The notes under the pieces were generated by a model. It was not told the origin of the DNA. It searched no databases and was given only the letters and a program-made list of their open reading frames with translations. Shown here in pieces: positions 25,528 through 48,870 of a DNA stretch of 57,029 nucleotides (position 1 is its first letter; each line of letters opens with the position of its first letter). The DNA lies in IMG/VR virus record IMGVR_UViG_3300043425_000238, positions 1-57,029 of that record; one strand, written 5' to 3'. The DNA comes from a virus. Lineage: Duplodnaviria > Caudoviricetes. The translations under genes and the position numbers were made by a program.

Positions 25528-28500
25528 TTATGCTCCAAGTAATTGGTCAGCTAAGTTGTTGATTTCTTCGTCATTATATACTAAACCACCCTTTGCGTAC
25601 TTAGGACCTTTAGTACCGCCGCCCATATTGGCTGGTCCTGAAACTCCGCCCATGCCTATGTTGGTATTAGTTGGTGTGTATCCGCTAGATCCTGAGCTAG
25701 ATGAAGTTGAGGATGAGGATCCTGAACGGGTGCTAGGTGATGCATACCCAAAGTTATATCCTGAAGAACCGCCACCGTAAGAAATAGACGCTTGCATAGC
25801 TTGTTCTGCGGCGGCTTCTGCTTCCATTCTAGCCAAGAATTCTTCCTCTAACTCGTCTATTTCGCTGTTTTCTTTATCTACGCTAATGTTATTTTGTTGA
25901 CCCCATGCGATGTTATTTGCTCGCATCCTGTCGTAGTAGCTTCGAGTATTAGCTATTTGGTTTGTTCTACTTTGAGCTGCCGCCGCTCTTGCTTTAGGTG
26001 ACATGTAGTTTTGCTTTGCTGGGTGGTTATTATCATATATACCTTGAGCCATGGCATTGTACGCAGCGGCATTATATTCCTTGTACGCTTCAGGATCAAA
26101 TTTTTCTGTGTTACTTGTTGGATTCCATTTTGATAAGTTCATGTTATATGCCAACACAGCATCCCAGTATCCTTCAGGAACGGTTATTCCTTCAACAAGA
26201 GGTGTAGTAGAGTTCCAAGCCCAAGATAAATTATCTACAGGATTTGCTCCTGACGCATCCCAACTGTGCGCATACAATGGCAACTTAGATATTGGATTAG
26301 TAGTATCTAGCGTAGCCCAATCAGGCGTATCTGTACGACCTGAAGCTTGGTATTGCTTATACAAATTTGGTAAATCTGAATCTGGTCCAAAAACCCTTGC
26401 TTGCGTCATTAAGAAGTTATGGTATGGATCTGCATATTGACCCCCTACATTCTGAGCATACCTGTCGTAGAAGTCATCACCAAACAACATGCCTTCATGT
26501 TTTGTGTACATTGGCGCTTTTGTTACAGACTGGACAGTAGGCGTAGCTACTGGTGCAGTTGCTTGCGGCATAGTTGCTGCTGGTGCAACAGGTTTAGGTA
26601 CAGCTGACTGCTCAGCATAGTACTTAGCTAACTCGTTAAGGTCAGGGTTTACTGTAACAGGTTTTGCTTGATTGTAGTTTTGCAGCCAGTTAGATGAGTC
26701 TGCCAAGTTGTTTAGTTGCTGAAATTGGTTAGAGCTAATGCCATACTTAGCTAGGTCAGGTTGTGCAATTGGCGTGCTAAGTGTTGGTGAATAACTAGGT
26801 AACGTTGGTGAATAACTAGGTAACGTTGTAGACGAGTAGCTATTCATCAATGGTGCTATGGGTGTAGGAGCACTAAACGTAGCTAAAGGTGTGTAGTACT
26901 TAGCTTGCAGATCAGTAAGTCCTGGCATGCTTGCGTTTGTGTAGTATTTACTAATGTCTGTATTCACGGCGCCTCCTTCGGCGTAACCTGGCTCCTCGTA
27001 TTGAGGTAACATCTTAGAAGTACGTCGACCGTATTCCGCTGATCTACGCGCTATGTCTGCTTCACTTGCACGACGTGCTCGTTCCTTAATTCCTGCTTCA
27101 ACGCCTGCCATGTTCTCGTAGTAGTCGCCAACAGCATCGGCTTTAGGACCAGTAAATGGCGAGAAGAAGTAGTCGGTATATTGATACGCTTTAGCCATGT
27201 CTCTAGCAACATCAATAGGTATGTCGCCTCGAACGCCAAAGTCATAACCTCCACCGTAGTTGATTGCTGCATCTAAGGGTGAACGATTCACTCTTGAGTT
27301 GCCTACTTCGTCTAGGTACTTCTCTTTGAGCGCTGATGACAAGATGTCTGGATACTTGCCATGCTCTTTAGCTTGTTTGTTGTACTGAACACGATACTTG
27401 GCTGCCTTAGCTAAGAGCTTTGCTTTGTCAATGACTGACAAGTCAGCAAATGGATCTTTGACTTCACCGCCTTTAGCAAAGCCTGTTGGATTCTTAAACG
27501 CTGACTCACCATGTCTTGCTTGTAAGTCACGCCATTCAACTGCCTTCTTATAGATCTCTGGAGTCATGTTACCTGCTGCAACAGCATCGATCTCATCAAG
27601 GCTTAGCAAAGGATTGATTGAAGGGAAGCTACCACGTTCGTCGTCCATTGAATACTCGGTGACTGTTGAACCTTTAAGATTACCTCGACCTCTTTGTTCT
27701 CCTGCCCATCCTTCGGCTTTAGGTAGCATTTCACCACCGTAGGAACCGTCTTTATTTCGATATGCACGGAGACCGTATGGGTTTGGGTAGTCACGATATG
27801 ATACTCCTCCTTCGCTAGGTGCTGTCTCAAAGATTGAATCACTTAGCTTGTCGATCTGTTCTTCGTCATAGTCTGATGCTACAAGACCGCCTGCTGCGTA
27901 GCCAGGTACTTGCTGACCTGGTCCTGTAAGAATGTATTCGCGTGCTTCAGGAGATAGCTTGATCTCGTGGTAGTAAGGTGCATCAACAATGTCAAGGTTA
28001 CGTTTAAGATGACGCCCTTCTAGTGTATTGATCTCAATCCCTGGGATCTTACGAAGTGGATCTAGTCCTTCCTTCATTACAGCCTTGTCGTAAATGGCAG
28101 CGTAGTCTTCAGGTATACTAAGTCCTCGTGTATCAGATATTGGATACGAGGTAGGAACGTAAACATAATCGGCGCCACGCTCTGCTGCATCTTGTACAGC
28201 TGACTTGAGAAGGGTGCCGTGCACTTGATGTAACGGTCCTGTTTGCTCAACACCTTTTTGTGCGTCTGATTGGATCTCTTCGATTACGTAGCTGTTAGGC
28301 TTTGTAGTGATACCACCTTTAAGTTCAAGTGGTTCAGTCGATGCGTATGAACCACGGACATGTCCAACAAGTCCTTCAGGAGCTTCGCCTGATCTGTAGT
28401 GCTTGTATTCGCCTGTTTGAGAAGGGTGCGTCACGCCAAATTCAAAGTAGTCATGCGGTGCTTGTGACTGTACTAAGCGCTGTATGCCTTCGTAAGGGTA

Positions 28501-29424
28501 GCCTGCTGCCATGACGTCGTCTTCGGCTAAACGCATTGCTGTATCTTGGATCGTGTCATGAAAGTATTCGTAGTTGATGTCCTCAACTGTGTTCATGATG
28601 TCATTTGGGTCCATCGTATCATCAATGCCGTAGATTCTACCAAGGATTCTTTGCGACTGCGGATCTAACTGACTGAACTCAATATCACCGTATTGCAACA
28701 TCAACGCATCATTGTGAAACCGATCTGGAATGCCCGCTTGACGTACTGCATCGTCCATTGTCACCATGTCGTGAGCCATGTCCATGTATTGGTCTATGTC
28801 GCCTTGAGCTGCTTGCTTTAGGTCGACCTTGCTGTACTGTGAAGGTGGAATTGATTGAGCAAACTCTTGCTTAGTAATTCTAGCTGCAGAGTCTGGGTAG
28901 TTTTGTGCTATTACCTTAAGACCTTCCTTCGTCACGCCAGGTTTGCCTTGCACTTGCTTGAGTAGGTCGAACACTGTCTGTGTTTCAGGCCCTTTGATCT
29001 GCTCATCAAGTCTGGTTGTTAAGTTAAGGTTACCTTGAGGTGGAATGATGTTCATCGTAGGGCTGACGCCGTATCGTTCGGCTATGTTGACTGCTTGTCT
29101 TGCTGCGATCGGTGCAGTTGCTTTCAAGGCAGGCTTGACAAGGGGCAAAGCAGGAGCAACGTCCATTGCGCCAAAGCCTAGATCAGTAATGGCTTGACCT
29201 GCGCGTTGTAGATCTTGACGAGGTGTTTGTGAGATTTGGTATTTGCCCATCAATGCATCTTTGATTGCGCCGAAGTCAGTGTTTGCTAATGTCTTTGCGC
29301 CACGATACAACATGGCAGGAGGGAATACGTTGGCTAATGTGTCAAACGTCTCTACGTTACGAGGATTGTTGCCGAATCCTTGCCATAACTCAGAAGCAAT
29401 AGTCGAGAGAGATTTGTCAGCCAT
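25528..29424 (-). CDS. Large composite protein (1298 aa) between TerL and portal
   Basis: Long ORF divided by four (Y/F)AxGGxV motifs; contains an H-x-R...EEIQSD domain. Confidence 0.75.
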   Translation of the reverse strand: MADKSLSTIASELWQGFGNNPRNVETFDTLANVFPPAMLYRGAKTLANTDFGAIKDALMGKYQISQTPRQDLQRAGQAITDLGFGAMDVAPALPLVKPALKATAPIAARQAVNIAERYGVSPTMNIIPPQGNLNLTTRLDEQIKGPETQTVFDLLKQVQGKPGVTKEGLKVIAQNYPDSAARITKQEFAQSIPPSQYSKVDLKQAAQGDIDQYMDMAHDMVTMDDAVRQAGIPDRFHNDALMLQYGDIEFSQLDPQSQRILGRIYGIDDTMDPNDIMNTVEDINYEYFHDTIQDTAMRLAEDDVMAAGYPYEGIQRLVQSQAPHDYFEFGVTHPSQTGEYKHYRSGEAPEGLVGHVRGSYASTEPLELKGGITTKPNSYVIEEIQSDAQKGVEQTGPLHQVHGTLLKSAVQDAAERGADYVYVPTSYPISDTRGLSIPEDYAAIYDKAVMKEGLDPLRKIPGIEINTLEGRHLKRNLDIVDAPYYHEIKLSPEAREYILTGPGQQVPGYAAGGLVASDYDEEQIDKLSDSIFETAPSEGGVSYRDYPNPYGLRAYRNKDGSYGGEMLPKAEGWAGEQRGRGNLKGSTVTEYSMDDERGSFPSINPLLSLDEIDAVAAGNMTPEIYKKAVEWRDLQARHGESAFKNPTGFAKGGEVKDPFADLSVIDKAKLLAKAAKYRVQYNKQAKEHGKYPDILSSALKEKYLDEVGNSRVNRSPLDAAINYGGGYDFGVRGDIPIDVARDMAKAYQYTDYFFSPFTGPKADAVGDYYENMAGVEAGIKERARRASEADIARRSAEYGRRTSKMLPQYEEPGYAEGGAVNTDISKYYTNASMPGLTDLQAKYYTPLATFSAPTPIAPLMNSYSSTTLPSYSPTLPSYSPTLSTPIAQPDLAKYGISSNQFQQLNNLADSSNWLQNYNQAKPVTVNPDLNELAKYYAEQSAVPKPVAPAATMPQATAPVATPTVQSVTKAPMYTKHEGMLFGDDFYDRYAQNVGGQYADPYHNFLMTQARVFGPDSDLPNLYKQYQASGRTDTPDWATLDTTNPISKLPLYAHSWDASGANPVDNLSWAWNSTTPLVEGITVPEGYWDAVLAYNMNLSKWNPTSNTEKFDPEAYKEYNAAAYNAMAQGIYDNNHPAKQNYMSPKARAAAAQSRTNQIANTRSYYDRMRANNIAWGQQNNISVDKENSEIDELEEEFLARMEAEAAAEQAMQASISYGGGSSGYNFGYASPSTRSGSSSSTSSSSGSSGYTPTNTNIGMGGVSGPANMGGGTKGPKYAKGGLVYNDEEINNLADQLLGA
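26783..26828. repeat. 21-bp tandem duplication (TLPSYSP x2) inside the 1298-aa gene
   Basis: gttggtgaataactaggtaac occurs twice, followed by gttg. Confidence 0.9.
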
Positions 29425-35698: not shown

Positions 35699-36007
35699 TT
35701 AAAAGTTATAGTCGTAATGTTTTACAGGTTTGTCGCTAAGTCCGAATTTACGACCGCTTGCATCTTTCCAGCCTTTTTTACCTAGGCGGATGCGGATGAC
35801 GCGGTTGTTTTCGTTAGACTTGATGTTCCACTCTTGATCGTTGTTATTAACACAGTGAGCTGAAAAACCACCAGGAATGAATTCTGGTTTCCATGATTCT
35901 GAACGTTCTGCATCCATAGCACGAATTTCCATAGTTTTTTCAGATACTACACGAACAACTTCAAATGGATTAACATCTGACCAACCGTAATGATTTGCAT
36001 ACAACAT
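35699..36007 (-). CDS. Conserved hypothetical early protein (102 aa)
   Basis: First gene after a strong promoter; YAN..G.SDV.PFEVVRVVSEKT.EIRAM...YDYNF. Confidence 0.7.
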   Translation of the reverse strand: MLYANHYGWSDVNPFEVVRVVSEKTMEIRAMDAERSESWKPEFIPGGFSAHCVNNNDQEWNIKSNENNRVIRIRLGKKGWKDASGRKFGLSDKPVKHYDYNF

Positions 36008-36049
36008 AACTTTCTCCTCTTTCTAATCGTTCACATTGAACGTGGAACC

Positions 36050-36082
36050 ATTATAAACGGAAGAAATATCACTTGTAAACAG
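36050..36082 (-). promoter_or_regulatory. Sigma70-like early promoter ctgTTTACA-N18-TATAAT
   Basis: Near-consensus boxes followed by hairpin cgttca-cat-tgaacg (36028-36042) and TAGAAAGAGGAG. Confidence 0.7.
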
Positions 36083-36084
36083 CT

Positions 36085-36321
36085 TTAGCGCAAATATTTA
36101 TCTCTTTTTAGCATTCTTTTGTAAAAATCATTGACGGTTCTTGTAACATGTTGACGTGAAACACCTATTTCCTTTGCCACATGAGCCTTACAACGACCTC
36201 CAATGACAACCATTCTGATGGCTTTTTCCATATTTTCATGATACCAGCTTCGTTCAATGATAGCCTCAACTAGCTCTAACTCAACACCGGTCATATTCTG
36301 CATTACTTTACACTCCCCCAA
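36085..36321 (-). CDS. HTH DNA-binding protein (KorA/TrfB-like)
   Basis: R.V...G...AHVAKEIGVSRQHV.R.V helix-turn-helix. Confidence 0.65.
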   Translation of the reverse strand: MGECKVMQNMTGVELELVEAIIERSWYHENMEKAIRMVVIGGRCKAHVAKEIGVSRQHVTRTVNDFYKRMLKRDKYLR

Positions 36322-38120
36322 TTTTCTCCACGTTCGTCATCAATAGCTAAAGGGATCTTTAAATCAAAGCCACACATAATCCTGCCTGCATGTTCTAGTG
36401 CCTCAATCCCTTCTTTTGTATTCGGCGCTGTCCACACCAATTCATCATGAACCGTCATCAATGGCATGCCAATGGATCCAGTCACACCTTCTTCAACCAT
36501 TTTAATCATGGCCATCTTGTTAATATCAGCTGCAGAGCCTTGCAGGATCCTGTTCAGTGCCTTATGCGTATACGCTCTGCGGACTCTCCCCCACTTATCG
36601 ATTGCAAGACCTTTATCTTCAATGGCATCTTCTCTAACTCCCCACTGATCTGCTTCCCACATATTAAACCTGGCCCTGCGTCCAAGTATAGTCTTGACAT
36701 ATCCACGGGAGCCTGCCCTCTTGGCTGCCAGATTATACGTCTCACGGACAAATGGCATCTTGTCATGGTAAATACTAAAGATCCCTTCAGCTTCCGCCAC
36801 TGTCATGCCTAACTCAGACGCTAACTTAGCTTTGCCCATCCCGTAGACAAGACCAAAGTTAATGGATTTTGCCGGCTTACGAGCAACGCCAGTGATCTCC
36901 GACACCATGGTATGAAAGTCAGTGGTTGGATCCTCACGATACATAGACCTTGCAAGCTCTGCGCCACGGCCAACACCATAATGGGTCAGCATTCTAAATT
37001 CGATTTGACTCCAGTCTTGTGCCGACATGATCTCCCCTTCGTCAGGTAAGAACAGACTCCTGACCAAAGGCCCAATCTCTTCATCACGCGCTGGAATATT
37101 TTGAAGGTTAGGGTTAGAACTACTAAGTCGACCGCTAACAGTGCCATACTCATCAGAACGTAATTGATTAAATGTTCCATACAATCTCCCATCCACATGC
37201 TTGTCTAATATATAGCCACGAACAAAGGTATCTCTTGCCTTTAGAAGCCTGCGGATCTCATATACAATAGGTAGATTAGCCTTGAGCCATGCCCCTTCAA
37301 AAGAAGGATTGCCTTTACCTGTAGTAGGATACTGGATCCCCTTCTTGTCACAATACGCCTTTAACGCAGCAGCCTTGTTAACGTCTTCAATAGGAAACTC
37401 TTGACCATACACTTCAATTTGCGCTGACCAGTCATCGTCCAACTGCTTAGCTTTCTCAACGTCAACACGAACTCCCCTCAAGCGCATGTCAACCAGCATA
37501 GGACAGAGCTTAGCTTCTACCTCGTACACTCGCCACAAGTCTTGTGCTTCTAACTCAGCCTTTTGCAGCAAGAACAGGTCAGCCAGACGGTCCACGTCAC
37601 CTCTAGCATATTCCTCTACCCAACTTGCCGGTGCTTTCCAGATGTTGCCAGCTTGACGACGACCTTTAGGTCCGCCAAATGCTGCCCGCAGCCGTTCGTA
37701 CATCTCGTCTTGTACCTTGCCACCTAAACCATACTTGCCTAACAATGAATCCAATGAATAAGATCTAGCGTATTCATCCAACAAAGGTTCAGCCAGCTGC
37801 ACATCCCAGATAGGCCCGTTCACTGTCACGCCTTCCCACTTCAGCCAACCTAGATCGTAGTTAGCATTGGCAAAGACCTTTGGCTCATCGCCACTAAACT
37901 GCTCGTTAGCCCATCTCAGTACCTGATCACGGTCCATGTTGCCACCACCTTCATGGCGGATAGGTAGGTAATAACTCTCACCGCCGGCTGCCACGCAAAT
38001 GCCAACAATGTAGCCTTTACCACGACCCCATCCTGGTCCATTGTCTAGTAGTTCAGGATCGCACGTCTCCGTGTCGATAGCAATAGGGCCTTTACCTCTT
38101 AACTCCGGTAATACATTCAT
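36303..38120 (-). CDS. polA: DNA polymerase family A with 3'-5' exonuclease
   Basis: Exo I AIDTET, N..YD; TVSGRLSSSNPNLQNIP; motif A DWSQIEFR; motif B RKPAKSINFGLVYG (Phe at the E. coli 762-equivalent position); motif C VHDE. Confidence 0.95.
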   Translation of the reverse strand: MNVLPELRGKGPIAIDTETCDPELLDNGPGWGRGKGYIVGICVAAGGESYYLPIRHEGGGNMDRDQVLRWANEQFSGDEPKVFANANYDLGWLKWEGVTVNGPIWDVQLAEPLLDEYARSYSLDSLLGKYGLGGKVQDEMYERLRAAFGGPKGRRQAGNIWKAPASWVEEYARGDVDRLADLFLLQKAELEAQDLWRVYEVEAKLCPMLVDMRLRGVRVDVEKAKQLDDDWSAQIEVYGQEFPIEDVNKAAALKAYCDKKGIQYPTTGKGNPSFEGAWLKANLPIVYEIRRLLKARDTFVRGYILDKHVDGRLYGTFNQLRSDEYGTVSGRLSSSNPNLQNIPARDEEIGPLVRSLFLPDEGEIMSAQDWSQIEFRMLTHYGVGRGAELARSMYREDPTTDFHTMVSEITGVARKPAKSINFGLVYGMGKAKLASELGMTVAEAEGIFSIYHDKMPFVRETYNLAAKRAGSRGYVKTILGRRARFNMWEADQWGVREDAIEDKGLAIDKWGRVRRAYTHKALNRILQGSAADINKMAMIKMVEEGVTGSIGMPLMTVHDELVWTAPNTKEGIEALEHAGRIMCGFDLKIPLAIDDERGENWGSVK

Positions 38121-38563
38121 CAGACTTCCAATTCGTTATGGTGCCACTCACGTCCAGCCTTTTCCCATAGTGCCTTGCTAGTTTCACTATGCGGATAGTC
38201 TTGGTTGAACACAATTCGTTGGCAGCCGGTATTTAAGAGCAGCTTCAAGCAATGAATGCATGGCGCTGTCGTACAATAAGCAGTCTTGATCAGCTTCACG
38301 TCAGTCACCTGCAGCAGAGCATTCTGTTCAGCATGGATAGCTTCACACTTATCAAGGCCAAGGCCTGATCGATACTTAGCACCTTCACATGGCTCGTCAA
38401 TGCAATGAGCAAAGCCACTAGGCACGCCGTTGTAGCCAGTTGCCAAGACTTTGTTGTCTTCTGACACTAGCACGCAGCCAACTGTGCGTCTAGGACAAGT
38501 ACCTCTTGAAGAGACTACCTCGGCCATGACGCCAAAGTATTCATCCAGGCTAGGGCGTCGCAT
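38120..38563 (-). CDS. dCMP deaminase
   Basis: RPSLDEYF, R.TC.RR.VGC, ATGYNG, HAEQNA, PCIHC zinc motifs. Confidence 0.93.
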   Translation of the reverse strand: MRRPSLDEYFGVMAEVVSSRGTCPRRTVGCVLVSEDNKVLATGYNGVPSGFAHCIDEPCEGAKYRSGLGLDKCEAIHAEQNALLQVTDVKLIKTAYCTTAPCIHCLKLLLNTGCQRIVFNQDYPHSETSKALWEKAGREWHHNELEV

Positions 38564-39212
38564 AGTCTTCAACCAATTTAAAGTGTCGTTCGTAAACATG
38601 TAAGCTTGCTACATTCCAATAAATGTCACCTGCAGGGACGCCAATGTTATTTGATACCTGGTCTAGCACATACTTCTGCCAGGCATAGTCATTCTTGTAG
38701 CCAAACACAGCATCATTAGATCTCATGTACACTAGCGCATGAACCTTACCTTTCCTGATCAGGTACTGAACGGTGTTGGTACACATGAAGTCGCTCATGC
38801 CGCCTGTACTATATTCCCATTGCATCGATGGTCTTGTATAGATCATGATGGCTCTGCGAGAGTCATGGTTTCTTTTTAACTCAGTTACGCAATTGATAAA
38901 CTGATCATGGTTTTCTACTGAGTAGATGCACCAGCCATAGTTAGAGTTAATCCAACCTTCAGGCGATGCTACAGCTTTCCAAATAGCAGGGATTGGCTCA
39001 GGGATGTCGTTCACATTAAGTGACTTGGACAAATACCAATCAAGCTCACGCTTAACGTAGTCTTCGTTGACAAACCCAAACAATGCCTCGTCATCAGCCA
39101 AAAAAGAAGCATTCATGATCTCAATGGTTTTCACACCTGACTTGTCAATGACAAACTCACCTTTGCGAAGCTTCTTAACAAGCTTGTTGCAAATGTCTTT
39201 AGTCTTCTTCAT
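38550..39212 (-). CDS. dCMP hydroxymethylase (T4 gp42-like, thymidylate synthase fold)
   Basis: Long runs match T4 gp42 as recalled: DK.GVKTIEI, RELxWY.SKSL, INSNYGW, DSRR.IMIYTRPSMQ, GMSDFMCTNTVQYLIR, MRSND.VFG..NDYAWQKYVLD, SLHVY.RHF. The Asp equivalent to gp42 D179 (dCMP specificity) is kept. Confidence 0.9.
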   Translation of the reverse strand: MKKTKDICNKLVKKLRKGEFVIDKSGVKTIEIMNASFLADDEALFGFVNEDYVKRELDWYLSKSLNVNDIPEPIPAIWKAVASPEGWINSNYGWCIYSVENHDQFINCVTELKRNHDSRRAIMIYTRPSMQWEYSTGGMSDFMCTNTVQYLIRKGKVHALVYMRSNDAVFGYKNDYAWQKYVLDQVSNNIGVPAGDIYWNVASLHVYERHFKLVEDYATP

Positions 39213-40068
39213 AATGACCTCGTAATAAATTCACTAACGGATATTGATCCGCATGGCGGAAACGTTTCCAATATTGTGGATGTTCCACGCGAGTGTGTTT
39301 AAGATCTGCAATCTCACACCATCTTGCTGCTTCTTCACCTAACGCAATGATTAGTCTTGGATTAAGCTCATCCACGAAGTCTTTTGATTGGATCCCACCG
39401 TCAAGACGGAAGCCGTTAACCCAGTAAAGCTCTGACTCTGGCACACCTGCATAGTCCAATTGCATGGCAAGCCAAGGACTGCAGCCCTCCCAATGAACGA
39501 ATGGCAAGTCAAGGTTATCGATGAGTGGGTTTGATGCTGTGTCTCCAACAATAAGGATGTTTCCTGGTTTGAAGTTGCCAATGCCTGGTCCTTTGTTTTC
39601 GTAGATCTCAACTGCTGCTAACTTCTCAGCAAGATCGTTTAATGTTTCCTTTGTCCAGTCATAAGTCACATGAGGCGTGTTGTATTTCATGGCAGCGTAA
39701 CCATCATAGATAGCTTTGAACTGTGCCTCGTCAGATACCATCTCTTCACGACCACTAGACCAAGCTTTATGACAAGTCTCGTAGTCAGGTAAGCAGGCAA
39801 TAACAATACGGCCTTCAGACAAGATCATGCGGTCAAGCATACGAGTGCGATGGCCATAACGCTGTGGCGTCTTGTGATAGATCGGTGAATAGACTAACTC
39901 AGAATAGTACATGCGGTCTACTGATTTGGCATCACTAATGACTGACTTAAGCGTTTCAGTAAACATCACACGAGCATCTGGGTAGTAGCTATGGTGCCAA
40001 GAATCACCTAGACTGTCAGCTAGCGTAGTCTTACCAGCTCCATCAGGGCCTTCTAAAATATATCTCAT
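39199..40068 (-). CDS. P-loop dNMP kinase fused to a uracil-DNA-glycosylase-like domain
   Basis: N-terminal ILEGPDGAGKTT...DR...SE.VY (thymidylate-kinase-like). C-terminal ILIVGD..., PF....S..L...L..AG, YW.N, P.LIIALG..A, HPQY (UDG superfamily, family-4-like). Confidence 0.7.
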   Translation of the reverse strand: MRYILEGPDGAGKTTLADSLGDSWHHSYYPDARVMFTETLKSVISDAKSVDRMYYSELVYSPIYHKTPQRYGHRTRMLDRMILSEGRIVIACLPDYETCHKAWSSGREEMVSDEAQFKAIYDGYAAMKYNTPHVTYDWTKETLNDLAEKLAAVEIYENKGPGIGNFKPGNILIVGDTASNPLIDNLDLPFVHWEGCSPWLAMQLDYAGVPESELYWVNGFRLDGGIQSKDFVDELNPRLIIALGEEAARWCEIADLKHTRVEHPQYWKRFRHADQYPLVNLLRGHYEED

Positions 40069-40229
40069 CGAGGTAGCTCCAAGTGTTTAGTATCAACTTC
40101 CACGATCTTATCATCTGGCAGCTGCACCATGGCTGTGTCAGGATAATGACCTGTCTTTAAAACTTTAACTACACATTCAAACTCTCTATGCCATAACCAC
40201 TGTGGCAATGTTTTATTATTTGGCTGCAT
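40065..40229 (-). CDS. Hypothetical protein (54 aa)
   Basis: Read by hand: MQPNNKTLPQWLWHREFECVVKVLKTGHYPDTAMVQLPDDKIVEVDTKHLELPR; fills the gap and overlaps both neighbours. Confidence 0.5.
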   Translation of the reverse strand: MQPNNKTLPQWLWHREFECVVKVLKTGHYPDTAMVQLPDDKIVEVDTKHLELPR

Positions 40230-40629
40230 TCAGCACCCCTTCAATGTCAGGTCCTTGCCAGCCTCTCGGCTTAATTACATCTAGCGAGGATCCACGTTTA
40301 GATTCGTCAGCGCTACTTGCTCTGACCTTGCTCATGTTTGCTCGTTGAACCTCAGCCCACAATTGCTGCCATGGCAAGCCCATCATGTAAGCTGTGCCCA
40401 TAGCTACGTAGACTAGATCAATCAAAGCGTCTGCCATGCCTGGTAAATCATCAGAAATAGCACTCACACGGAATTCCATGAGCTCTTCTTCCAAGAATTT
40501 AAGACGGAATTTAACTGTCTCTTGGTCCAAGAGTCTAGGTTTGCCGTCATAAGTTAGGCCAAACTTTTCATGGAAGGCTGCCACATCTTCATAGTTGGAC
40601 AATGGTCCAAAGGTATCGTCTATGCTCAT
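40216..40629 (-). CDS. MazG-like all-alpha dNTP pyrophosphohydrolase (candidate dCTPase/dUTPase)
   Basis: DV..FH.KF, R...L.EEL.E, ADALIDLVYV, EV.RANMSK, KP..W..P motifs. Confidence 0.85.
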   Translation of the reverse strand: MSIDDTFGPLSNYEDVAAFHEKFGLTYDGKPRLLDQETVKFRLKFLEEELMEFRVSAISDDLPGMADALIDLVYVAMGTAYMMGLPWQQLWAEVQRANMSKVRASSADESKRGSSLDVIKPRGWQGPDIEGVLNAAK

Positions 40630-40883
40630 GATATTCTTTTCACCTTAACTTTGTTTTTTGCACGAATGATCGTGGTGTTTGCTGAACCACGTCCCCAATT
40701 TTTAACTGCGTAGCTAGAGATGCTGCTTCTAAGCACCTCAATGTCAAACTCACCTTGCGGAATAAACGCAGTGTTGCCTACCTGAAGTGTACTGATTTTC
40801 TTACGGTAATGGTTAGTGATAGCTCCATGCTTTTTACGTTCTTGAGCTTTTGACTTAAATAATGCTAATAGTTTTTCAAACAT
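40626..40883 (-). CDS. Small basic hypothetical protein, possibly DNA-binding
   Basis: 85 aa Lys/Arg-rich; preceded by TAGAAAGGA. Confidence 0.55.
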   Translation of the reverse strand: MFEKLLALFKSKAQERKKHGAITNHYRKKISTLQVGNTAFIPQGEFDIEVLRSSISSYAVKNWGRGSANTTIIRAKNKVKVKRIS

Positions 40884-40925
40884 TTCTATTCCTTTCTAGT
40901 GTTGGAATGGTTATTGTAAACAGTT

Positions 40926-41837
40926 TTAAGGTTTAAGTAAATCTGACCTGTCACCCCACTCGCGGTATGAGTTGATGGTTGCAGCATCCATTGACACGTG
41001 GTGATCTTTACCAGTGTTCCAGAAGAAGGCACCATCACTAGCATGCTCTCTCATAAAGCGCAGGACTTTAAGATCGTAGGTCTTGACTGATGGGAATGGT
41101 GCAGTCTCAAGATCTTCACCACGGCCAAACTCGTAAGGATGGCTGTAGATCTTAGCTCTTCCTGCTTCGCCTGCTTTAATGTTACGGGCAACAGCTACAC
41201 AATGGAAGTCAGTATCTGGCCAGCCTACTTGCATGGATCTGCTCATGACGCCTGTTGAGATGGCTGTCCACATTTCCTTAGGTTGACCATGCTTCTTCAT
41301 GTAGTTATCACAGGCTCTGGTCATGACTGCAGTGACTAGCGGATGCTTCAAACCAAATGGGAAGAAGGTTGCATTGTTACGGTCAGCCCAAGCTTTTGCT
41401 TCTCTATTGAGATTAGGCATGGCAGCCGAACGAACCCAGCGTAGTTCACCGCCTAACTCCATGGCGTGCATTTGATGGGTTGATGCTTCTTGTCGGGCTG
41501 GTGCAAATAGCACCAAGCGTTTGTTGTACTTCTTAGCCAAGATTGCCAACGCTGCAGGCGCATGGCCTTGTCTAGGTGCTACATAGGTAATGGTATCAGT
41601 CTTGATGGTTGACATCAACAACTCACCAAGACGACCTTTTGTGCCACCTAGTGGGTTCAGATCTTCACGAACCACATGGAAGGTTCTACCCTTTTCATCG
41701 TTAGTCAACTGAAATGGCTCAACAACAAAGTCACCGCAAGGGTCGACCCAGTCTTTTGTCATTTCCAAATACTCTTCTCTGCTATGCAGCGTTAAGTCAT
41801 AGTTTATCCCGTCAAGGATATGGTTGTTATGCGCCAT
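40926..41837 (-). CDS. PLP-dependent enzyme, fold type II (ACC deaminase/D-Cys desulfhydrase-like; type used in phage base hypermodification)
   Basis: VVREDL...GGTKGR (Schiff-base Lys), G.A..ALA..A, STG loop, TYD.K, FWNTG. Confidence 0.8.
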   Translation of the reverse strand: MAHNNHILDGINYDLTLHSREEYLEMTKDWVDPCGDFVVEPFQLTNDEKGRTFHVVREDLNPLGGTKGRLGELLMSTIKTDTITYVAPRQGHAPAALAILAKKYNKRLVLFAPARQEASTHQMHAMELGGELRWVRSAAMPNLNREAKAWADRNNATFFPFGLKHPLVTAVMTRACDNYMKKHGQPKEMWTAISTGVMSRSMQVGWPDTDFHCVAVARNIKAGEAGRAKIYSHPYEFGRGEDLETAPFPSVKTYDLKVLRFMREHASDGAFFWNTGKDHHVSMDAATINSYREWGDRSDLLKP

Positions 41838-42960
41838 CTTTTACTCTCCTTTGATATTCGTCTACTGACATGTTAGCTCTGGACAAGACATAGTCATCAG
41901 AAGGGTGCACATTGATGTCGTTGAAACTACCAACAAGGCCCAATTCCAAATGCTTCCGCTGCCTTCCATAAGGGTGATGACCGACACGGTGACTGCTAAA
42001 TACACGATCCCGATCAAGATGCTCATAATCATGCCCTGGCCGGACATAAGATTCAATCCAGCGAATATAATCACAAGCAATATCTTCTGCATCATAGGGG
42101 ACTGATCCAGTGTCTTCATAAATTCTCTCCATAATGTTGTCTAGAAATTGTATTGGCTTCATCTTCTTTGGCTTGTCAAACAAGTAGCTCAAGCATTCCA
42201 CGGCGTTTGTGCCATAAAAGAAGTGGCTATCCCTTTTGACCAGCTCAGGGAAAAAGTCAGCAATGTCAGCAACTACCGCTGCATACTGGAATTTGTAGGC
42301 CCGTAGATCACGTGACCTGTTCCACTCAAACATCCATTCGCCAATCTCTCTCAAACCTTTAGGCTCCCCTGACGTTAACCAATCAGCTAAGCTACGGGCC
42401 AAGACAGGAGCGTACACGGCCAAGAAGAAGTCACCGCCTCGTTTGAAGCCACGACCTGGTCTAGGGAACGCGGGGAATTGGTAACCAACAGAAGTGTAGA
42501 ACGTAGACTGAGACCACTGGATCTTCTCAGCCATTTCCTCAATACTAAGCCCAATGATCTCTGGCAGCAGAGTGTTGTGGTAGCCTGAATGCTTCTTGCC
42601 ATAGTTAATTCCTGAGCCTGTCAGTCTGTGGAGCATAAATACATACAACCACTCAGGCAAGGACCAAACACCATGAACACCCGTAGCTTCTTCCGCAATT
42701 GGCAAACGAATGCCATGCATCTTATGATCGTATGGATGCTCCTCGGCTTTCCCATACCACAAGTCAAGCAAGATCTGTGTAAACCCGGCGTACTTACGGT
42801 TGACAACGTCGTAGAGGTGGACGTTCTTCATAAGGTCGTCGTCAAAAGGCGAGTCCTCGTGACGTGTCGTCCCTAGATTGCAATGTTCCTGCTGCCACGT
42901 CGCCATCTGATGGTAGCGTAGGAATTCAGGATAGTATTCGGTCATGACAAGATTTGTCAT
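41827..42960 (-). CDS. aGPT-PPlase / 5-hmdU DNA kinase-like helical (HhH-glycosylase fold) DNA-modifying protein
   Basis: DDLM......V.R, F.....VADIAD, YGTNA..CL and E...CD..R patterns resemble aGPT-PPlase1; sits between a PLP enzyme and the BGT-like fusion. Divergent; assigned by eye. Confidence 0.55.
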   Translation of the reverse strand: MTNLVMTEYYPEFLRYHQMATWQQEHCNLGTTRHEDSPFDDDLMKNVHLYDVVNRKYAGFTQILLDLWYGKAEEHPYDHKMHGIRLPIAEEATGVHGVWSLPEWLYVFMLHRLTGSGINYGKKHSGYHNTLLPEIIGLSIEEMAEKIQWSQSTFYTSVGYQFPAFPRPGRGFKRGGDFFLAVYAPVLARSLADWLTSGEPKGLREIGEWMFEWNRSRDLRAYKFQYAAVVADIADFFPELVKRDSHFFYGTNAVECLSYLFDKPKKMKPIQFLDNIMERIYEDTGSVPYDAEDIACDYIRWIESYVRPGHDYEHLDRDRVFSSHRVGHHPYGRQRKHLELGLVGSFNDINVHPSDDYVLSRANMSVDEYQRRVKDGA

Positions 42961-43931
42961 TCTGCTTCCCCTCTTAATAATCTATTCATACGGCCATGTG
43001 CCCATGAAACATGAACTGAACCTGGTTTTTCCATGTACTCTTCATCCATCTCGCCTTTGCTATTCTTAAAGTAGAACGGATAGCGCAGGTAGGTCCAACC
43101 ATTGTTAATACACATCTCGCTAAACAACTCGTCCATCTTACGACGTAAGAAGTCACGCTCCTCCCAAGATCCTGCAAACGGCGTGCCTTTGTAGTAGCCA
43201 GTCTTCGGGAGCTTACGACTCTCGTTCTCAATGTAGATCGGCTGCACAACTTGAATGCCACAGCCGGAGTCCCGCTGAATATCAATGAGCTGCTGCTGAA
43301 GTCGCACGACTAAGTCAACTAGCGCAGGAATTGGATGAGCTTGTCTATGTAAATGATGACGGATGTCGATATTACCGAAGCAAACCGCTAATTCGTCAGG
43401 AATGTACTCCAAAAAGCTAGAAATACCGCTTTCAAGTGCCCCAAAAAGAGTTTTCCCATCATGGCGTATGACTGACGCGCCTGGCACATACCAGTTCAAA
43501 CTATGACTGTCTCCTAATATAATATAACTCGAGGCTTTTTGTGTGTGGACAGGTGCGCTTGTGGCGCGAGCATTTAGAGTATCTTTTGGAAAATTTGGCC
43601 ATCTCCTAGCAATGAGGTCGCCAAAGCCGACTGGACGCTCATCTAACCACTCAAGTTTGTCACCGAAGCCGATCATGCGGTCAAACTTCTCACGATTCTC
43701 GTCAGAGGCGCCACCGAACAAGTTAAGAGTGCCTGACCATTCCATGCCGAGGTAGCAATAGATCTTGTCGTACTGCTCCCAATTAGTTTTAGATTCGTCT
43801 TTTGTGTAGATGACGTCGACGTCGTTGCCTTCACGACTAATTTGATCTGCGCGCATTAAAGCCCATGCAGTGCGGTGAGATCCTTCTTTAGGTGTTAAAG
43901 TCCCGTTCGGACTGTAGATTGCTATTTTCAT
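42957..43931 (-). CDS. T4 beta-glucosyltransferase-like N-terminal domain fused to an SGNH acyltransferase/esterase domain
   Basis: N-terminal MKIAI...ISREGNDVDVI...YDKI...LNLFGG...LDER parallels T4 BGT MKIAI...ISEMGLNVDII...YDRL...INFFGG...TDIR as recalled. C-terminal ILGDSHS, DG.T, FGNIDIR and SVH match SGNH blocks I, II, III and V. Confidence 0.6.
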   Translation of the reverse strand: MKIAIYSPNGTLTPKEGSHRTAWALMRADQISREGNDVDVIYTKDESKTNWEQYDKIYCYLGMEWSGTLNLFGGASDENREKFDRMIGFGDKLEWLDERPVGFGDLIARRWPNFPKDTLNARATSAPVHTQKASSYIILGDSHSLNWYVPGASVIRHDGKTLFGALESGISSFLEYIPDELAVCFGNIDIRHHLHRQAHPIPALVDLVVRLQQQLIDIQRDSGCGIQVVQPIYIENESRKLPKTGYYKGTPFAGSWEERDFLRRKMDELFSEMCINNGWTYLRYPFYFKNSKGEMDEEYMEKPGSVHVSWAHGRMNRLLRGEAE

Positions 43932-43974
43932 GCCTTTCTTCCTCTTTCTATCCAGTCAGATGACTGTACGACAC

Positions 43975-44007
43975 AGTATACCACGTTTCTTATTTTGTTG
44001 TAAACAG
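43975..44007 (-). promoter_or_regulatory. Sigma70-like promoter ctgTTTACA-N18-TATACT driving the modification operon
   Basis: Extended -10 (TGgTATACT), then hairpin cagtc-agat-gactg (43953-43966) and TAGAAAGAGG. Confidence 0.7.
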
Positions 44008-44009
44008 TT

Positions 44010-45539
44010 TTAGCGATACTCATTAAAATACATGTTAGTCTGTGGCAGCACAATGTGCAAGTGCTTCTTGGCTCTGGTAACGCCTACATAAAACACTCGG
44101 ATCTCGTCATCAGGATTCTTAGTGTATTCTGCATAGCTACGCTTTGCCAGATCAGTAAACACAACCACATGGTCAGCTTCTCCGCCTTTCACGCCATGGA
44201 TGGTTGAAACATGGTGCCTAGGATGCTGCGATAAAGCTTTAGGGCCTCCTTGACGCAGTACCATTAAATAGTACTCACGCTGCTCAAGAGGGATCCCTGT
44301 TAGAGCATCATGCCAAGGACCATCTACTAAGATGCCGTGATCTCGTTTAAGATCTTCCATTTTGTACTCGGCATCATCCAACAATGTCTTGCCGTCTTTG
44401 AATCCCCTCTTGATGCCAACACCAACCTCTAAGAATTCCAAGAAGTTTTTGATGTCATTGCCCAATTGAGGTTTGCCTGCTCTGAGCCGTTCCCAATAAA
44501 CAATAGCTTTGTGTTCCTTGGCTTTGACAGAGCTGCCTTGACTAGTGGTAAAAGTAATGCCTTGCTCAAATAGGTTTCTTTTAATCCCACTTAGTTGATA
44601 CGCATTCCTAGCTAGGTATAGCCAGGTCCCTTCAGCATCAGGGATCATGGTAGGATTCAAATAGTAACTAACAGCGCCTTTGTCTTCTCTAGACGCAAAT
44701 GCCTTATCAAACCTTTTGCCCACTCTCTTGATAATCTTTTGACTAAGCTTGTGGATAGAACTCGGCAGCCGCCATGACTTGGCTAATACTTCCCTCTCGC
44801 CTTCTAAGCTTAGGAATGAATCAACATCTGCACCTGACCATTTATAGATGGCCTGATCATCATCTCCTGCAATATAGATCTCAAGGCAGCCGTTAAATGC
44901 CCGCTTGATCACTTCCCATTGCACCTTGGACAGATCTTGTGCTTCATCAATAATGGCTATGTCAACCTTGGCAGGACGACCTTCAATCAAGTATTCTCTG
45001 AGCATGTCAGTAAAATCCATGAGCCCAGAGTCAAGCTTGTATTCTTTTAGTGCCTTACTAAATTGATTAAGCTGATGCCAACTAAAGTCAGGATACTCCA
45101 ACGAGTCGTACGTCTTCTTTAATGAATCTCCGGTAGACCGTGCAAGATTATCCACAAAGAGCATTTGATCGCCCACAGTACCACCAACAGGCAGTCCTGT
45201 TCCTTCTTCATCGAGTCTTCCATTTAGTGAAATGCCAAGGATCCTAGCAAGATCTTGATAATGCGCAGGACCCATGACAGAGGATCTACTAGCACCGGTT
45301 TGACGAAAACAAAAGCTGTGGACTGTCCTAAAGAATGGTAGATCCTTCTTTGTGAAGCCAAACTTCTTTTCAGCCCTACTAATAGCTTCGTTGACCGCCT
45401 TAGTAGTGAATGACATGTAGGCAATCCTATCAGGAGGAATTCCTGCTGCCAACTTTTGCTCAACTATATCTAGGAGTCTGGTTGTCTTACCACAACCAGG
45501 TGCCCCTAAGATCAGCGTTTGATGCTGACCTATCTTCAT
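44010..45539 (-). CDS. UvrD/Rep-like SF1 helicase
   Basis: GAPGCGKT, SFT.KA, T.HSF, IIDEAQD, GDDDQAIY, S.R.P, STIHGVKGGEAD, YV..TRA. Confidence 0.92.
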   Translation of the reverse strand: MKIGQHQTLILGAPGCGKTTRLLDIVEQKLAAGIPPDRIAYMSFTTKAVNEAISRAEKKFGFTKKDLPFFRTVHSFCFRQTGASRSSVMGPAHYQDLARILGISLNGRLDEEGTGLPVGGTVGDQMLFVDNLARSTGDSLKKTYDSLEYPDFSWHQLNQFSKALKEYKLDSGLMDFTDMLREYLIEGRPAKVDIAIIDEAQDLSKVQWEVIKRAFNGCLEIYIAGDDDQAIYKWSGADVDSFLSLEGEREVLAKSWRLPSSIHKLSQKIIKRVGKRFDKAFASREDKGAVSYYLNPTMIPDAEGTWLYLARNAYQLSGIKRNLFEQGITFTTSQGSSVKAKEHKAIVYWERLRAGKPQLGNDIKNFLEFLEVGVGIKRGFKDGKTLLDDAEYKMEDLKRDHGILVDGPWHDALTGIPLEQREYYLMVLRQGGPKALSQHPRHHVSTIHGVKGGEADHVVVFTDLAKRSYAEYTKNPDDEIRVFYVGVTRAKKHLHIVLPQTNMYFNEYR

Positions 45540-47120: not shown

Positions 47121-47924
47121 TTAAAAGTCTTCTGTTATCTCAACACCAGCGTCAGACATAGGTTGTTGAACCTTGACTTCGCCTGCAGTGATTGATTTTT
47201 GGAATGCTTTGGCAGCAGCGTACAATGCAGGGCTTACAGCACTGACTTCTTCGCCTAAAGTAATCTTATAACCAAACCATGAACCAGCGTCATTTGACTC
47301 AGGCACAGTAGTTAAGGTATACAAATGACTAAACATTGGCTTAGTTTTTACTTGGCCATCTTTACCAGTAAATTTTAAACCGTCCATTTTACTCATCCAT
47401 TGACGCGACTTTTTCAATTGTGAACTAGTCATTGACACTACTGCAGGACTGAATGAACCGTCTGCTTTAGCAATCAACACATAGTGATTGCGTGTATCAA
47501 CTAACACGTCACTAGTCTTAGGATTGATCTCACCTTTATCATCTTGGAAGTATGAACGACCATCGATGTTTTTAACAGTTGAGATAATTGGATCATCTGG
47601 TGTGTATTCAGCTTTAAAACCACCGCCAGTTTCACGAGCGCCCCAGCGAACAAATCGACGAGTGTAGTAACAAGGAATAACTTGTACACCTACATCACCG
47701 CCAACAACTTCTTGAGTAACGCTATTAAATAGTGAGCCTTCTTCTGCGCCTTTAATATAGGCACCATCAGATTTTTTCACTTGAGGTGAACCAGATTGCA
47801 ACACGCTTAAGAACGGTATTGCATAGGCGTCCTTATCAGCTTGCTCAAAACCACTACCAGCATCTTCGTCATAATCAACAACTGCTAATGCCGTATTCTT
47901 TTTTAAATCTACATCTGTAGCCAT
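47121..47924 (-). CDS. Single-stranded DNA-binding protein (putative)
   Basis: IPFL.VLQ..SPQV, M.SSQLKKSR.W, Y.L.TV.ESN..GSWFG, acidic C-terminal tail ending in EDF. Confidence 0.65.
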   Translation of the reverse strand: MATDVDLKKNTALAVVDYDEDAGSGFEQADKDAYAIPFLSVLQSGSPQVKKSDGAYIKGAEEGSLFNSVTQEVVGGDVGVQVIPCYYTRRFVRWGARETGGGFKAEYTPDDPIISTVKNIDGRSYFQDDKGEINPKTSDVLVDTRNHYVLIAKADGSFSPAVVSMTSSQLKKSRQWMSKMDGLKFTGKDGQVKTKPMFSHLYTLTTVPESNDAGSWFGYKITLGEEVSAVSPALYAAAKAFQKSITAGEVKVQQPMSDAGVEITEDF

Positions 47925-47986
47925 AATATTACTCCTAACTTTCTAAAATAACTGCCAAGTTTAGCCTCCGGCAATCTCAAGAGGTA

Positions 47987-48511
47987 CTACTTAATCACAG
48001 CCTTCGAATATGGATAGGCTCCAAACAATTCCAAAGGAACGTCTACACCCTTAGCCATTTGCTCTTTAATAAAAGCTTTTAGCGTTTGAGCATGAACACC
48101 CTCTTTGTCACTGTAATTCATACCATGCTCTTGACAATACTCTTTTAAAGCTTCGGCACTGTCGTCTTCGCCACGCCCAAAGTCAATTGCCACGGTATTT
48201 TTAATCAAATCGCCAAAGCCACTTTCACGCAGCCATGCGTAGGCATCTCTCTTTTTATCAGCCGGAACTGACACAGCCACATCGTCCTTAATGGTGATCT
48301 TGGCTCCATTGTCAAGAGTGAATGCTTTCATGCCGGCTTCCGCCATAGCTGTTGGCAATAGATCTTCTTGCACTAACCTAAGTTCAGCTTCCGCTTGCTT
48401 AAGTTCGTCTTCTTTAACCAATACTGCTCTCTCAGCTTCTTGCTGTCTCTTAGCGAGATTAGCAATTTGCTTTAAGGCATTGTTGGATACACTAATTTCT
48501 AAATCTTCCAT
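47987..48511 (-). CDS. Conserved replication-module protein
   Basis: LP..M.E.G......DG..., A..WLRE.G.GDLIKN.V, VH.QTLKAF..E motifs. Confidence 0.65.
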   Translation of the reverse strand: MEDLEISVSNNALKQIANLAKRQQEAERAVLVKEDELKQAEAELRLVQEDLLPTAMAEAGMKAFTLDNGAKITIKDDVAVSVPADKKRDAYAWLRESGFGDLIKNTVAIDFGRGEDDSAEALKEYCQEHGMNYSDKEGVHAQTLKAFIKEQMAKGVDVPLELFGAYPYSKAVIK

Positions 48512-48870
48512 TATACTGCCTTTCCTGATGTATCAAGTTGAACTGGGATATAAGCCTGTTGGAAACGATCCCACTTTAATAACTTAATCCTTCCGCCTGT
48601 TTTTTCACCTGCAATCATGGCAGCGGCAACCATAATAGATGGATCTCCAATTGGCAACAAATAGTCGTCATCTGAAAAATCTTTAAGCTTCTCACGCAAA
48701 GCTCTAATTACTGGAACAGGTGAGAAGAAAGAATGACCAGGTGGCATTAAGATCTCAACTTGTCCAAACTCTATAGCTGGTGTTAAGTCAAACTCTGATA
48801 CCCACTGGCCATCAACTTTCCTAGCTTTTTCTTGTGTTACGTATACTGCAGGCATCTTAAATCCAATCAA
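48511..48870 (-). CDS. Conserved hypothetical protein downstream of the SNF2 helicase
   Basis: VYV.QE, A.EFG, L.DF..DDYLL..GDP, LKWDR....Y. Confidence 0.65.
   Translation of the reverse strand: MIGFKMPAVYVTQEKARKVDGQWVSEFDLTPAIEFGQVEILMPPGHSFFSPVPVIRALREKLKDFSDDDYLLPIGDPSIMVAAAMIAGEKTGGRIKLLKWDRFQQAYIPVQLDTSGKAV

Follow-up and report, generated by a model that had tools for sequence, protein, structure and literature searches.

We analysed a virus record from IMG/VR (IMGVR_UViG_3300043425_000238; CheckV completeness 100%), and the whole of this record, 57,029 bp, is referred to here as the window. Between 36303 and 44004 on the - strand it carries one closely coupled gene run of 7.7 kb behind a promoter-like site, in which a hydroxymethylase of the T4 gp42 type is encoded together with relatives of thymidine-hypermodification enzymes. 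On balance, we favour the reading that this operon serves to exchange the cytosine of the phage DNA for a hypermodified, 5-substituted form, DNA containing 5-hydroxymethylcytosine (hmC) being converted to an amino-acid-derived base after replication. The operon is best read as a cytosine variant of the amino-acid route because the thymidylate synthase (TS) homologue is of gp42 type, because the neighbouring proteins have the predicted fold of an amino acid:DNA transferase (AADT) and the family membership of a hypermodification-type pyridoxal phosphate (PLP) enzyme, and because the link to gp42-type genes held in 54/54 cases. The features of the run, from the promoter-like site onwards, are these:

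43975-44004 (-), sigma-70-like promoter site: TTTACA, 18 nt and extended -10 TG-TATACT, a consensus match (10/12) and no more
42957-43931 (-), 324-aa two-domain protein with a possible beta-glucosyltransferase (BGT)-like N-domain and an SGNH C-domain, from an AlphaFold2 (AF2) model, the VIA structure search and Foldseek (phrog_13881 1.1e-50)
41827-42960 (-), 377-aa all-helical enzyme with a predicted HhH DNA-glycosylase/AADT fold, from an AF2 model, structure searches and invariant residues
40926-41837 (-), 303-aa fold-type II PLP enzyme of the M6 gp52 decarboxylase family (phrog_7093 3e-39)
40626-40883 (-), 85-aa open reading frame (ORF), no family match in Pfam or PHROG
40216-40629 (-), 137-aa MazG-type nucleotide pyrophosphohydrolase (PF01503 6.9e-15; phrog_671 9.1e-29)
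40065-40229 (-), 54-aa ORF, no family match in Pfam or PHROG, with a 61% identical copy in a related locus (L007)
39199-40068 (-), 289-aa fusion of a thymidylate-kinase-like domain and a uracil-DNA glycosylase (UDG), from its family profile against the PDB (phrog_761 5.4e-16)
38550-39212 (-), 220-aa dCMP hydroxymethylase, T4 gp42 type (PDB 1b49, E 3.1e-82)
38120-38599 (-), 159-aa dCMP deaminase (PF00383 6.7e-20; phrog_174 2.7e-36)
36303-38120 (-), 605-aa family A DNA polymerase (PolA) with 3'-5' exonuclease (PF00476 1.8e-57, PF01612 3.8e-07)

The hydroxymethylase indicates which base the pathway would start from. It belongs to the TS fold and family (PF00303 1.7e-19), and its match to T4 gp42 extends over residues 13-216 at about 65% identity, as estimated from the alignment, a similarity almost on a par with that of T4-like phages. 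The motifs DFMCTNT and KNDYAWQ match T4, and D141, C144, D167 and D175 are the T4 states at four diagnostic positions. We take these to be the equivalents of ThyA L143 (acidic here), C146 (the catalytic Cys), D169 (Asp) and N177 (Asp), in a numbering mapped through T4 and, for the E. coli sequence, partly presumed. The last of them corresponds to T4 Asp179, the dCMP-selecting residue, whose position is marked by the D179N mutant entries 6l18 and 6a9a. Because the diagnostic residues are as in T4 gp42, hm-dCMP is the expected product and the protein is expected to be a gp42-type dCMP hydroxymethylase, in agreement with the original prediction, which had been made from the letters alone and had pointed to the retained NDYAWQ. 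Some gp42-like enzymes make 5-hydroxy-dCMP rather than hm-dCMP, and their mark, in the portion of PMC13326640 on which we draw, is Asn at the ThyA D169 equivalent (D169N). A role as 5-hydroxy-dCMP synthase was rejected for the window enzyme, which has Asp and not Asn at this position. Two PDB entries that do carry Asn there, 9iqu and 9iqc, match the window hydroxymethylase at 1.6e-12 only; both are named just ‘thymidylate synthase’, and the PMC13326640 criterion would make them putative 5-hydroxy-dCMP synthases.

The 303-aa PLP enzyme would tie the operon to hypermodification of DNA. Its sole PHROG is phrog_7093, matched across profile positions 11-278 of 279, and M6 gp52, a verified decarboxylase, matches the same family at 3.6e-159. 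The two proteins are 23% identical over 279 aa; the Schiff-base Lys67 lies in NPLGGTKGR, and K67, the S194-x-G196 phosphate loop, PFP and YD-K are invariant with M6 gp52. These data support placing the enzyme in the thymidine-hypermodification decarboxylase family (M6 gp52/ViI gp226 type). The Pfam family PALP matched at 8.8e-08 but with 32.3 bits, under the 35-bit cut-off; the fold-type II assignment of the original prediction nonetheless agrees with the PHROG match.

For the 377-aa protein the evidence is structural. The AF2 model, built from 40 sequences, is all-helical and has a pLDDT of 89.2 and a pTM of 0.90. In the exhaustive structure search (VIA) its first-ranked match was 8z2m_A, PaMx11 gp46/PUGT, which is an AADT of solved structure (Z 9.1, root-mean-square deviation 4.2, 205 residues aligned), and ranks 1-17 were HhH glycosylase-superfamily chains throughout. 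Among the predicted viral structures of BFVD, the matches included an AADT, aGPT-Pplase clade 1 and the helical domain of a 5-hydroxymethyldeoxyuridine (5-hmdU) DNA kinase, with ranks 1, 4, 5, 6 and 7 supporting a two-bundle helical glycosylase/lyase-like fold. No more than nine residues are invariant in a set of 45 diverse relatives, and E292 and C296 are among them in a Glu-x3-Cys arrangement; six true AADTs keep E243-x3-C247, and the AADT Cys and nearby Glu are reported as essential by Lee 2021 (PMC8989533). Measured to the end of the structural alignment, the two motifs lie at the same offset (307-296 = 258-247), and Cys296 may match PUGT Cys247. The model thus supports the AADT/HhH DNA-glycosylase fold that the original prediction had implied in calling the protein aGPT-PPlase-like. 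Membership of PF18724 (ADDT, aGPT-Pplase clade 2) did not hold up at the sequence level, so that ‘AADT-like’ refers here to the fold and motif of the protein and not to membership of that family.

The same structure search also offers an argument for a different substrate. DUF2419 chains stand at ranks 2 and 4 (Z 8.4 and 8.1), within 1 Z of the top match, and the three enzymes might accordingly act on free nucleotides or another small molecule, the HhH-fold protein resembling the queuosine-salvage hydrolase DUF2419/Qng1. That fold-II PLP enzymes mostly use free amino acids, and that the only PDB sequence match of the PLP enzyme is a cysteine synthase (E 0.0034), points the same way. We nevertheless consider action on free nucleotides very unlikely: the one PHROG of the PLP enzyme is the family of the DNA-acting M6 gp52, the E-x3-C motif is as in AADTs, the BFVD neighbours are hypermodification proteins, and the genes share an operon with PolA.

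The third protein, of 324 aa, has a clear C-terminal domain and a more elusive N-terminal one. In its AF2 model (pLDDT 92.3) residues 133-324 form an SGNH fold (VIA Z 15.5, root-mean-square deviation 2.8, 156 aligned; 93 Foldseek matches at E<=0.001), with O-acetylesterases and peptidoglycan O-acetyltransferases as neighbours. Pfam SGNH families did not match the protein at E<=10. Among 46 aligned sequences G140, D141, S142, H143, G186, D189 and H307 are invariant and N187 is nearly so (GDSH, GNID and a C-terminal His), residues that we read as the block I Ser, block III Asn and block V His of SGNH enzymes. The N-domain (residues 1 to ~130) aligns with T4 BGT residues 1-111 at 26% identity over 126 columns (BLASTP E 0.001), and hhalign gave a score of 41.0 (E 6.5e-05, probability 64%) against a maximum of 25.8 in 100 shuffles; a search of the ESM Atlas with the N-domain returned no usable match. 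A resemblance to the N-half, or acceptor side, of T4 BGT is suggested by these scores. The UDP-glucose-binding C-terminal Rossmann domain of BGT is not in the protein, residues 133-324 being SGNH instead. Of the BGT-like/SGNH fusion originally predicted, then, the SGNH half is well founded and the BGT-like half no more than suggestive.

Relatives of the 377-aa protein form a large and strongly conserved family of 929 proteins at E<=0.001 with no names attached, which fall into 140 clusters at 50% identity. Such a protein is encoded in at least 571 IMG/VR stretches, and the contigs range from the 57-kb PolA phage up to >200 kb. We compared 91 IMG/VR loci with a 377-aa-type gene, made up of 11 from one search and the best 80 of 571 and so representing the closest relatives, not a random sample. 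Of these, 67 contained an SGNH gene and 71 a PLP gene, the two occurring together in 66; a TS homologue was present in 53. Where at least 4 kb was available on both sides (35 loci), the SGNH gene occurred in 28, the PLP gene in 29 and the four genes together in 25. All of the TS homologues, 54/54 with that of the window included, show the gp42 residue pattern, so that a survey of homologue neighbourhoods, which the original prediction had proposed, found the cassette travelling with gp42-type genes. Furthermore, all seven long relatives of the 377-aa protein (639-790 aa) consist of a full 324-aa-type SGNH protein followed by a 377-aa-type domain. Fusions of 5-hmdU DNA kinase (5-HMUDK) with hypermodification enzymes are on record as well, including a kinase-decarboxylase-AADT triple fusion (Lee 2021, PMC8989533). 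This tight co-occurrence, the fusions, the invariant catalytic residues and the exclusive gp42-type link make it most improbable that virion DNA contains plain hmC only and that the three conserved genes serve an unrelated function; in favour of that view, the product is deduced rather than seen, and Petrov 2010, in the parts on which we draw, is undecided on further hmC modification in gene-42 phages without glucosyltransferases.

The family profile of the 289-aa protein matched the YorR kinase (2.3e-15, residues 2-153), the family-4 UDG TM0511 (8.2e-07, residues 141-258) and type-4 UDGs (~2e-05) in the PDB, which bears out the predicted kinase-UDG fusion and divides it into a deoxynucleoside monophosphate (dNMP) kinase at residues 1-~155 and a family-4-like UDG at ~160-289. 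Some relatives carry PF02223 or PF03167, the latter in 3/120 listed relatives. An invariant P-loop, EGPDGAGKT, and an invariant DR motif, which we take to be of thymidylate-kinase type, mark the kinase domain, and in our reading G175, F190, N218 and H263 are UDG catalytic motifs. The fusion family comprises at least 305 metagenome proteins. Phages with modified T can have a UDG fused to PolA (PMC13697223, in part); here the UDG is fused to the kinase. The MazG-type enzyme would clear dCTP, to judge from its family; in two related loci (L002 4702-5460 and L003 4576-5478) a MazG domain is fused to dGTP_diPhyd_N (PF18909), which is named for dATP/dGTP diphosphohydrolase.

A general scan of 63 window ORFs against Pfam (E limit 0.01 for 12 and 0.001 for 51) and against PHROGs found no glycosyltransferase, radical SAM enzyme, FAD enzyme or second AADT-like gene among them; an intact glycosyltransferase, a radical SAM enzyme and a second aGPT-PPlase had already been reported missing in the original prediction. 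Profiles of the 5-hmdU DNA kinase (PF18748), of HMUDK_hel (PF18723) and of PF18724 had no match anywhere in the complete record, and queries with M6 gp54 and PaMx11 gp49 and gp50 matched 0/91 loci in a single-sequence search of low sensitivity. The 289-aa fusion was considered as the missing DNA kinase and rejected on its thymidylate kinase motifs, on its match to phrog_761 only and on its occurrence near the cassette in just 4/91 loci. M6 gp54 and PaMx11 gp49, which are verified DNA kinases, match phrog_800 strongly and phrog_761 weakly. As its kinase domain is thymidylate-kinase-like, the 289-aa protein is better regarded as a nucleotide kinase than as a DNA kinase.

From these assignments a pathway can be proposed. 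Before replication, the MazG-type enzyme would deplete dCTP and the gp42-type enzyme would make 5-hydroxymethyl-dCMP, which the thymidylate-kinase-like domain would phosphorylate, leaving host nucleoside diphosphate kinase and PolA to put hmC into DNA. The deaminase would meanwhile supply dUMP to host dTMP synthesis, with the fused UDG keeping uracil out. After replication, the 324-aa protein would bind hmC in DNA via its BGT-like N-domain, and its SGNH domain would turn the hydroxymethyl into a leaving group, most simply by O-acylation, replacing the ATP-dependent 5-hmdU DNA kinase. Cys296 of the 377-aa enzyme may then add to C6, with Glu292 as acid, so that the leaving group is expelled and an amino acid adds to the exocyclic methylene. 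The PLP enzyme would decarboxylate the attached amino acid; since decarboxylation needs a free alpha-amine, a side-chain-linked residue such as serine is likeliest, and an aminoalkyl-type cytosine would result, 5-(2-aminoethoxy)methylcytosine being one example.

The order of the post-replicative steps is where we part from the original prediction, which had the SGNH domain acting last as an acylase. We found no evidence for that order, and the fusions and the BGT-like N-domain suggest SGNH action first, on plain hmC. In the thymidine systems the Cys-dependent transferase can act only once the hydroxymethyl carbon bears a leaving group (Lee 2021, PMC8989533). We favour O-acylation first because the SGNH protein is the sole conserved extra enzyme, is fused upstream of the transferase-like domain and has an N-domain like that of an enzyme acting on plain hmC; the SGNH enzyme probably stands in for the DNA kinase. 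A fuller proposal, plausible but put forward tentatively, is that this represents a second, ATP-independent mode of activation: an SGNH enzyme with a domain borrowed from BGT O-acylates 5hmC, divergent Cys-dependent transferases swap the acyl group for an amino acid, and the PLP enzyme trims the adduct to a positively charged aminoalkyl-cytosine, an undescribed natural base that would replace all C in many aquatic phages.

The same cassette might act on the same target in DNA by other chemistry, either with a nucleophile that is not an amino acid (a polyamine, for instance) or with the SGNH domain last, as an esterase or acylase, after direct displacement of the hydroxyl following Cys addition. 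PhiW-14 gp109 is a putrescine:DNA transferase (PMC8989533, Table 1), the SGNH matches span esterases and O-acetyltransferases, and neither an acyl donor nor an activating kinase was found in the window scans. Such variants have an outside but real chance of being correct. A decarboxylase-family PLP enzyme in 71/91 loci fits an amino-acid adduct better, and a late SGNH step sits poorly with its position ahead of the AADT-like domain in 7/7 fusions, an order that mirrors the 5-HMUDK fusions (Lee 2021), and with the likeness of its N-domain to the portion of BGT expected to contact hmC before its modification.

A further alternative concerns the base itself. T-even dCMP deaminases accept hm-dCMP, and the window's deaminase gene directly follows the hydroxymethylase gene and is found near the cassette in 39/91 loci; deamination of hm-dCMP could thus deliver 5-hydroxymethyluracil (hmU) to the post-replicative enzymes, with a hypermodified thymidine as in ViI and M6 as the final base. 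Characterised pairs of AADT and PLP enzyme, moreover, all act on hmU derivatives in what we draw from PMC8989533. Set against this, T4, with the same pair of gp42 and cd, is established to make hmC DNA (Petrov 2010), neither a dUMP-type hydroxymethylase nor a 5-HMUDK was found in profile searches of the record or in the 91 loci, and the SGNH protein has an N-domain reminiscent of an hmC-specific enzyme. We therefore consider an hmU target quite unlikely, and both this and action on free nucleotides less likely than the route through hmC DNA.

Several observations weigh against that route. For the 377-aa protein, Foldseek found nothing in the PDB at E<=0.001, its glycosylase matches being weak (best E 0.083), and the search tool itself notes that a Z of 9.1 is only moderate where a protein is helical. 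No Pfam family matched at E<=10, and 0/40 relatives matched PF18724 at E<=1; the family profile found nothing among PDB sequences at E<=10, and hhalign of the family was not significant either with PaMx11 gp46 alone or with a 6-sequence AADT alignment (E 0.24). Other searches with the protein were likewise negative, with no PHROG match, nothing by phmmer against the PDB at E<=1 and nothing by tblastn against 50,697 phage records at E<=0.01, and PF18724 had no match at E<=1 in a six-frame search of the record; PaMx11 gp46, as positive control, matches PF18724 at 1.6e-27. The pairing of Cys296 with PUGT Cys247 is drawn from the motif and the alignment ranges. For the N-domain of the 324-aa protein, the hidden Markov model search scored BGT at 7.5 bits (E 0.44), first of 384 real non-family ORFs, with 1/2000 shuffles beating it, and the 324-aa family profile did not recover BGT from the PDB. 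Known SGNH transferases use ester donors; no acyl donor for the SGNH domain is evident in the window, and a late esterase is equally possible on that count. The SGNH gene was not seen in 24/91 loci and the PLP gene in 20/91, many of these loci being incomplete, and the loci themselves were chosen by closeness. Lastly, family and fold assignments, conservation, fusions and co-occurrence are what we observed, and it is from these that substrate, donor and product are deduced. Overall, the first interpretation of the operon is partly supported.

Within the run, adjacent genes overlap by 1-50 nt, with a 42-nt gap (40883/40926) as the sole exception; the listed start of the dCMP deaminase overlaps the preceding gene by 50 nt, so its true start may be further in. 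The promoter-like site sits in a 78-nt gap before the first gene, the only sizeable gap upstream. It is a consensus match and not proof of a promoter, as the region holds 18 sigma-70-like sites against 13.1 +/- 3.4 in shuffles; no terminator-like site was found on the - strand across 35900-44300. The closely coupled operon and single promoter of the original prediction were thus recovered as - strand ORFs and a 10/12 consensus site, and its naming of the dCMP deaminase, the MazG-like enzyme and PolA agrees with the Pfam matches listed above.

Nearly all genes of the window lie on the - strand. Pfam and PHROG scans identified structural and lysis genes (terminase, portal, capsid protein, SU10-type adaptor, tail fibres and lysozyme) and a replication block with SNF2 helicase, Pam3-like proteins, AEP primase, UvrD-type helicase and PolA. 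In that block, at 47121-48870 (-), three genes in a row match Pam3 phage gp34-, gp33- and gp32-like families (PF23977, PF23984 and PF23992). A 1298-aa ORF at 25528-29424 (-), with the portal on one side and the terminase on the other, matched neither PHROG nor Pfam families at the thresholds applied. Deposited phages are distant, the PolA of the nearest being just 43% identical, and at the nucleotide level the hydroxymethylase gene alone matches, in 673 T4-like records at ~69% identity. PolA finds its best match in Microcystis phage Me-ZS1, a hint that the phage may be akin to freshwater cyanophage-like phages.

Other genes could extend the chemistry. Far from the operon, at 577-1020 (-), the window encodes a 147-aa GNAT-type acyl-CoA N-acyltransferase (phrog_4470 5.3e-30; no Pfam match). 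PaMx11 caps aminomethyl-dU with an acetyltransferase, and the GNAT-type gene could acetylate an amine product. Two related loci (L004 11128-12330 and L005 6507-7730) have a C5 cytosine DNA methylase-like gene of 400-407 aa (PF00145 1e-15 to 1e-16) directly after the SGNH gene, with a gp42-type gene present, an odd companion if the genome is without unmodified C. NAD-dependent sugar epimerase/dehydratase genes adjoin the cassette in L005 (8053-9839) and L010 (12487-13449), and L005 also has a UDP-glucose dehydrogenase-like gene, hints that some variants may add sugar too.

To our knowledge, amino-acid-derived DNA hypermodifications are all on thymine and all need a DNA kinase. We found no description of an AADT/PLP/SGNH route on cytosine, nor any link between SGNH proteins and hydroxymethylcytosine, in the literature that our search covered, subscription journals and supplements lying outside it. 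A cytosine version with a different activation step, if true, would mean a new natural base and a new class of DNA-modifying enzyme. Given the size of the 377-aa family, the chemistry may be common in aquatic viromes, and such a base would bear on evasion of restriction and CRISPR and on sequencing bias in metaviromes. The enzymes might also serve to derivatise 5hmC specifically, which would be useful in epigenetic mapping, and since the whole proposed pathway lies in one 7.7-kb operon it should be easy to clone and test.

Thymidine hypermodification, as in ViI, M6, PaMx11, PhiW-14 and SP10, relies on a dUMP hydroxymethylase, a 5-hmdU DNA kinase, an AADT (formerly aGPT-Pplase2) and a PLP decarboxylase (Lee 2021, PMC8989533). 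The window operon shares with these systems a TS-fold hydroxymethylase that would feed a C5-hydroxymethyl pyrimidine into DNA, an HhH-fold Glu-x3-Cys enzyme, a PLP enzyme of the M6 gp52 PHROG and clustering with replication genes. It differs in that its hydroxymethylase is dCMP-specific by its residues, that no 5-HMUDK P-loop kinase or HMUDK_hel and no radical SAM or FAD enzyme was found in the window, and that its transferase-like protein is ~90 aa longer than AADTs and has no PF18724 match. Its third conserved partner is an SGNH protein with a BGT-N-like domain, which in all of the long forms is joined to the transferase-like domain.

With the T-even hmC pathway (gp42, gp1, gp56 and the alpha- and beta-glucosyltransferases) the operon has in common a gp42 orthologue, a dCMP deaminase, the roles of dNTP pyrophosphatase and dNMP kinase, and a 324-aa N-domain that aligns with the first 111 residues of T4 BGT. 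In contrast to T-even phages, no glycosyltransferase was found in the window and the SGNH domain replaces the UDP-glucose-binding half of BGT; the dCTPase role would fall to a MazG-type enzyme, and the kinase is thymidylate-kinase-like and fused to a UDG. The window phage is a 57-kb PolA phage and not a T4 relative, and its hydroxymethylase, kinase, dNTPase, deaminase and polymerase share an operon with the SGNH/AADT-like/PLP cassette. The pathway to glycosylated 5-hydroxycytosine in RB69 and DLP3 (PMC13326640) is similar in pairing a TS-fold enzyme acting on dCMP before replication with group transfer on DNA afterwards. Its enzymes use flavin and O2 and have Asn at the position of ThyA D169 (PMC13326640), where the window enzyme keeps Asp, and no glycosyltransferase or sugar-nucleotide enzyme was found among the scanned window ORFs.

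Elements of the cassette also occur in phages close to T4. The cultured T4-like Aeromonas phages 44RR2.8t, 31 and 25, which have an ORF233c-type protein and could serve as a bench model, carry gene 42 but no glucosyltransferase, and further modification of hmC in gene-42 phages of this kind was left open in the parts of Petrov 2010 on which we draw; a P-loop kinase that phosphorylates 5hmC appears in Burke 2021, in part, as speculation only. No PLP homologue was found in the Aeromonas phage 31 genome. Its ORF233c (L020 5001-7388), just downstream of a sodium:solute symporter gene, encodes 795 aa; the 377-aa family profile finds nothing in the C-terminal half of this protein at E<=10, and its tail matches HMUDK_hel weakly, below the cut-off (E 0.0036). 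The N-terminal 336 aa of ORF233c match the 324-aa family profile at 1.2e-96, and the gp42 homologue of this phage is 57% identical to that of the window. SGNH-type proteins of this kind are encoded by 43 deposited phages, most of them T4-like Aeromonas phages.

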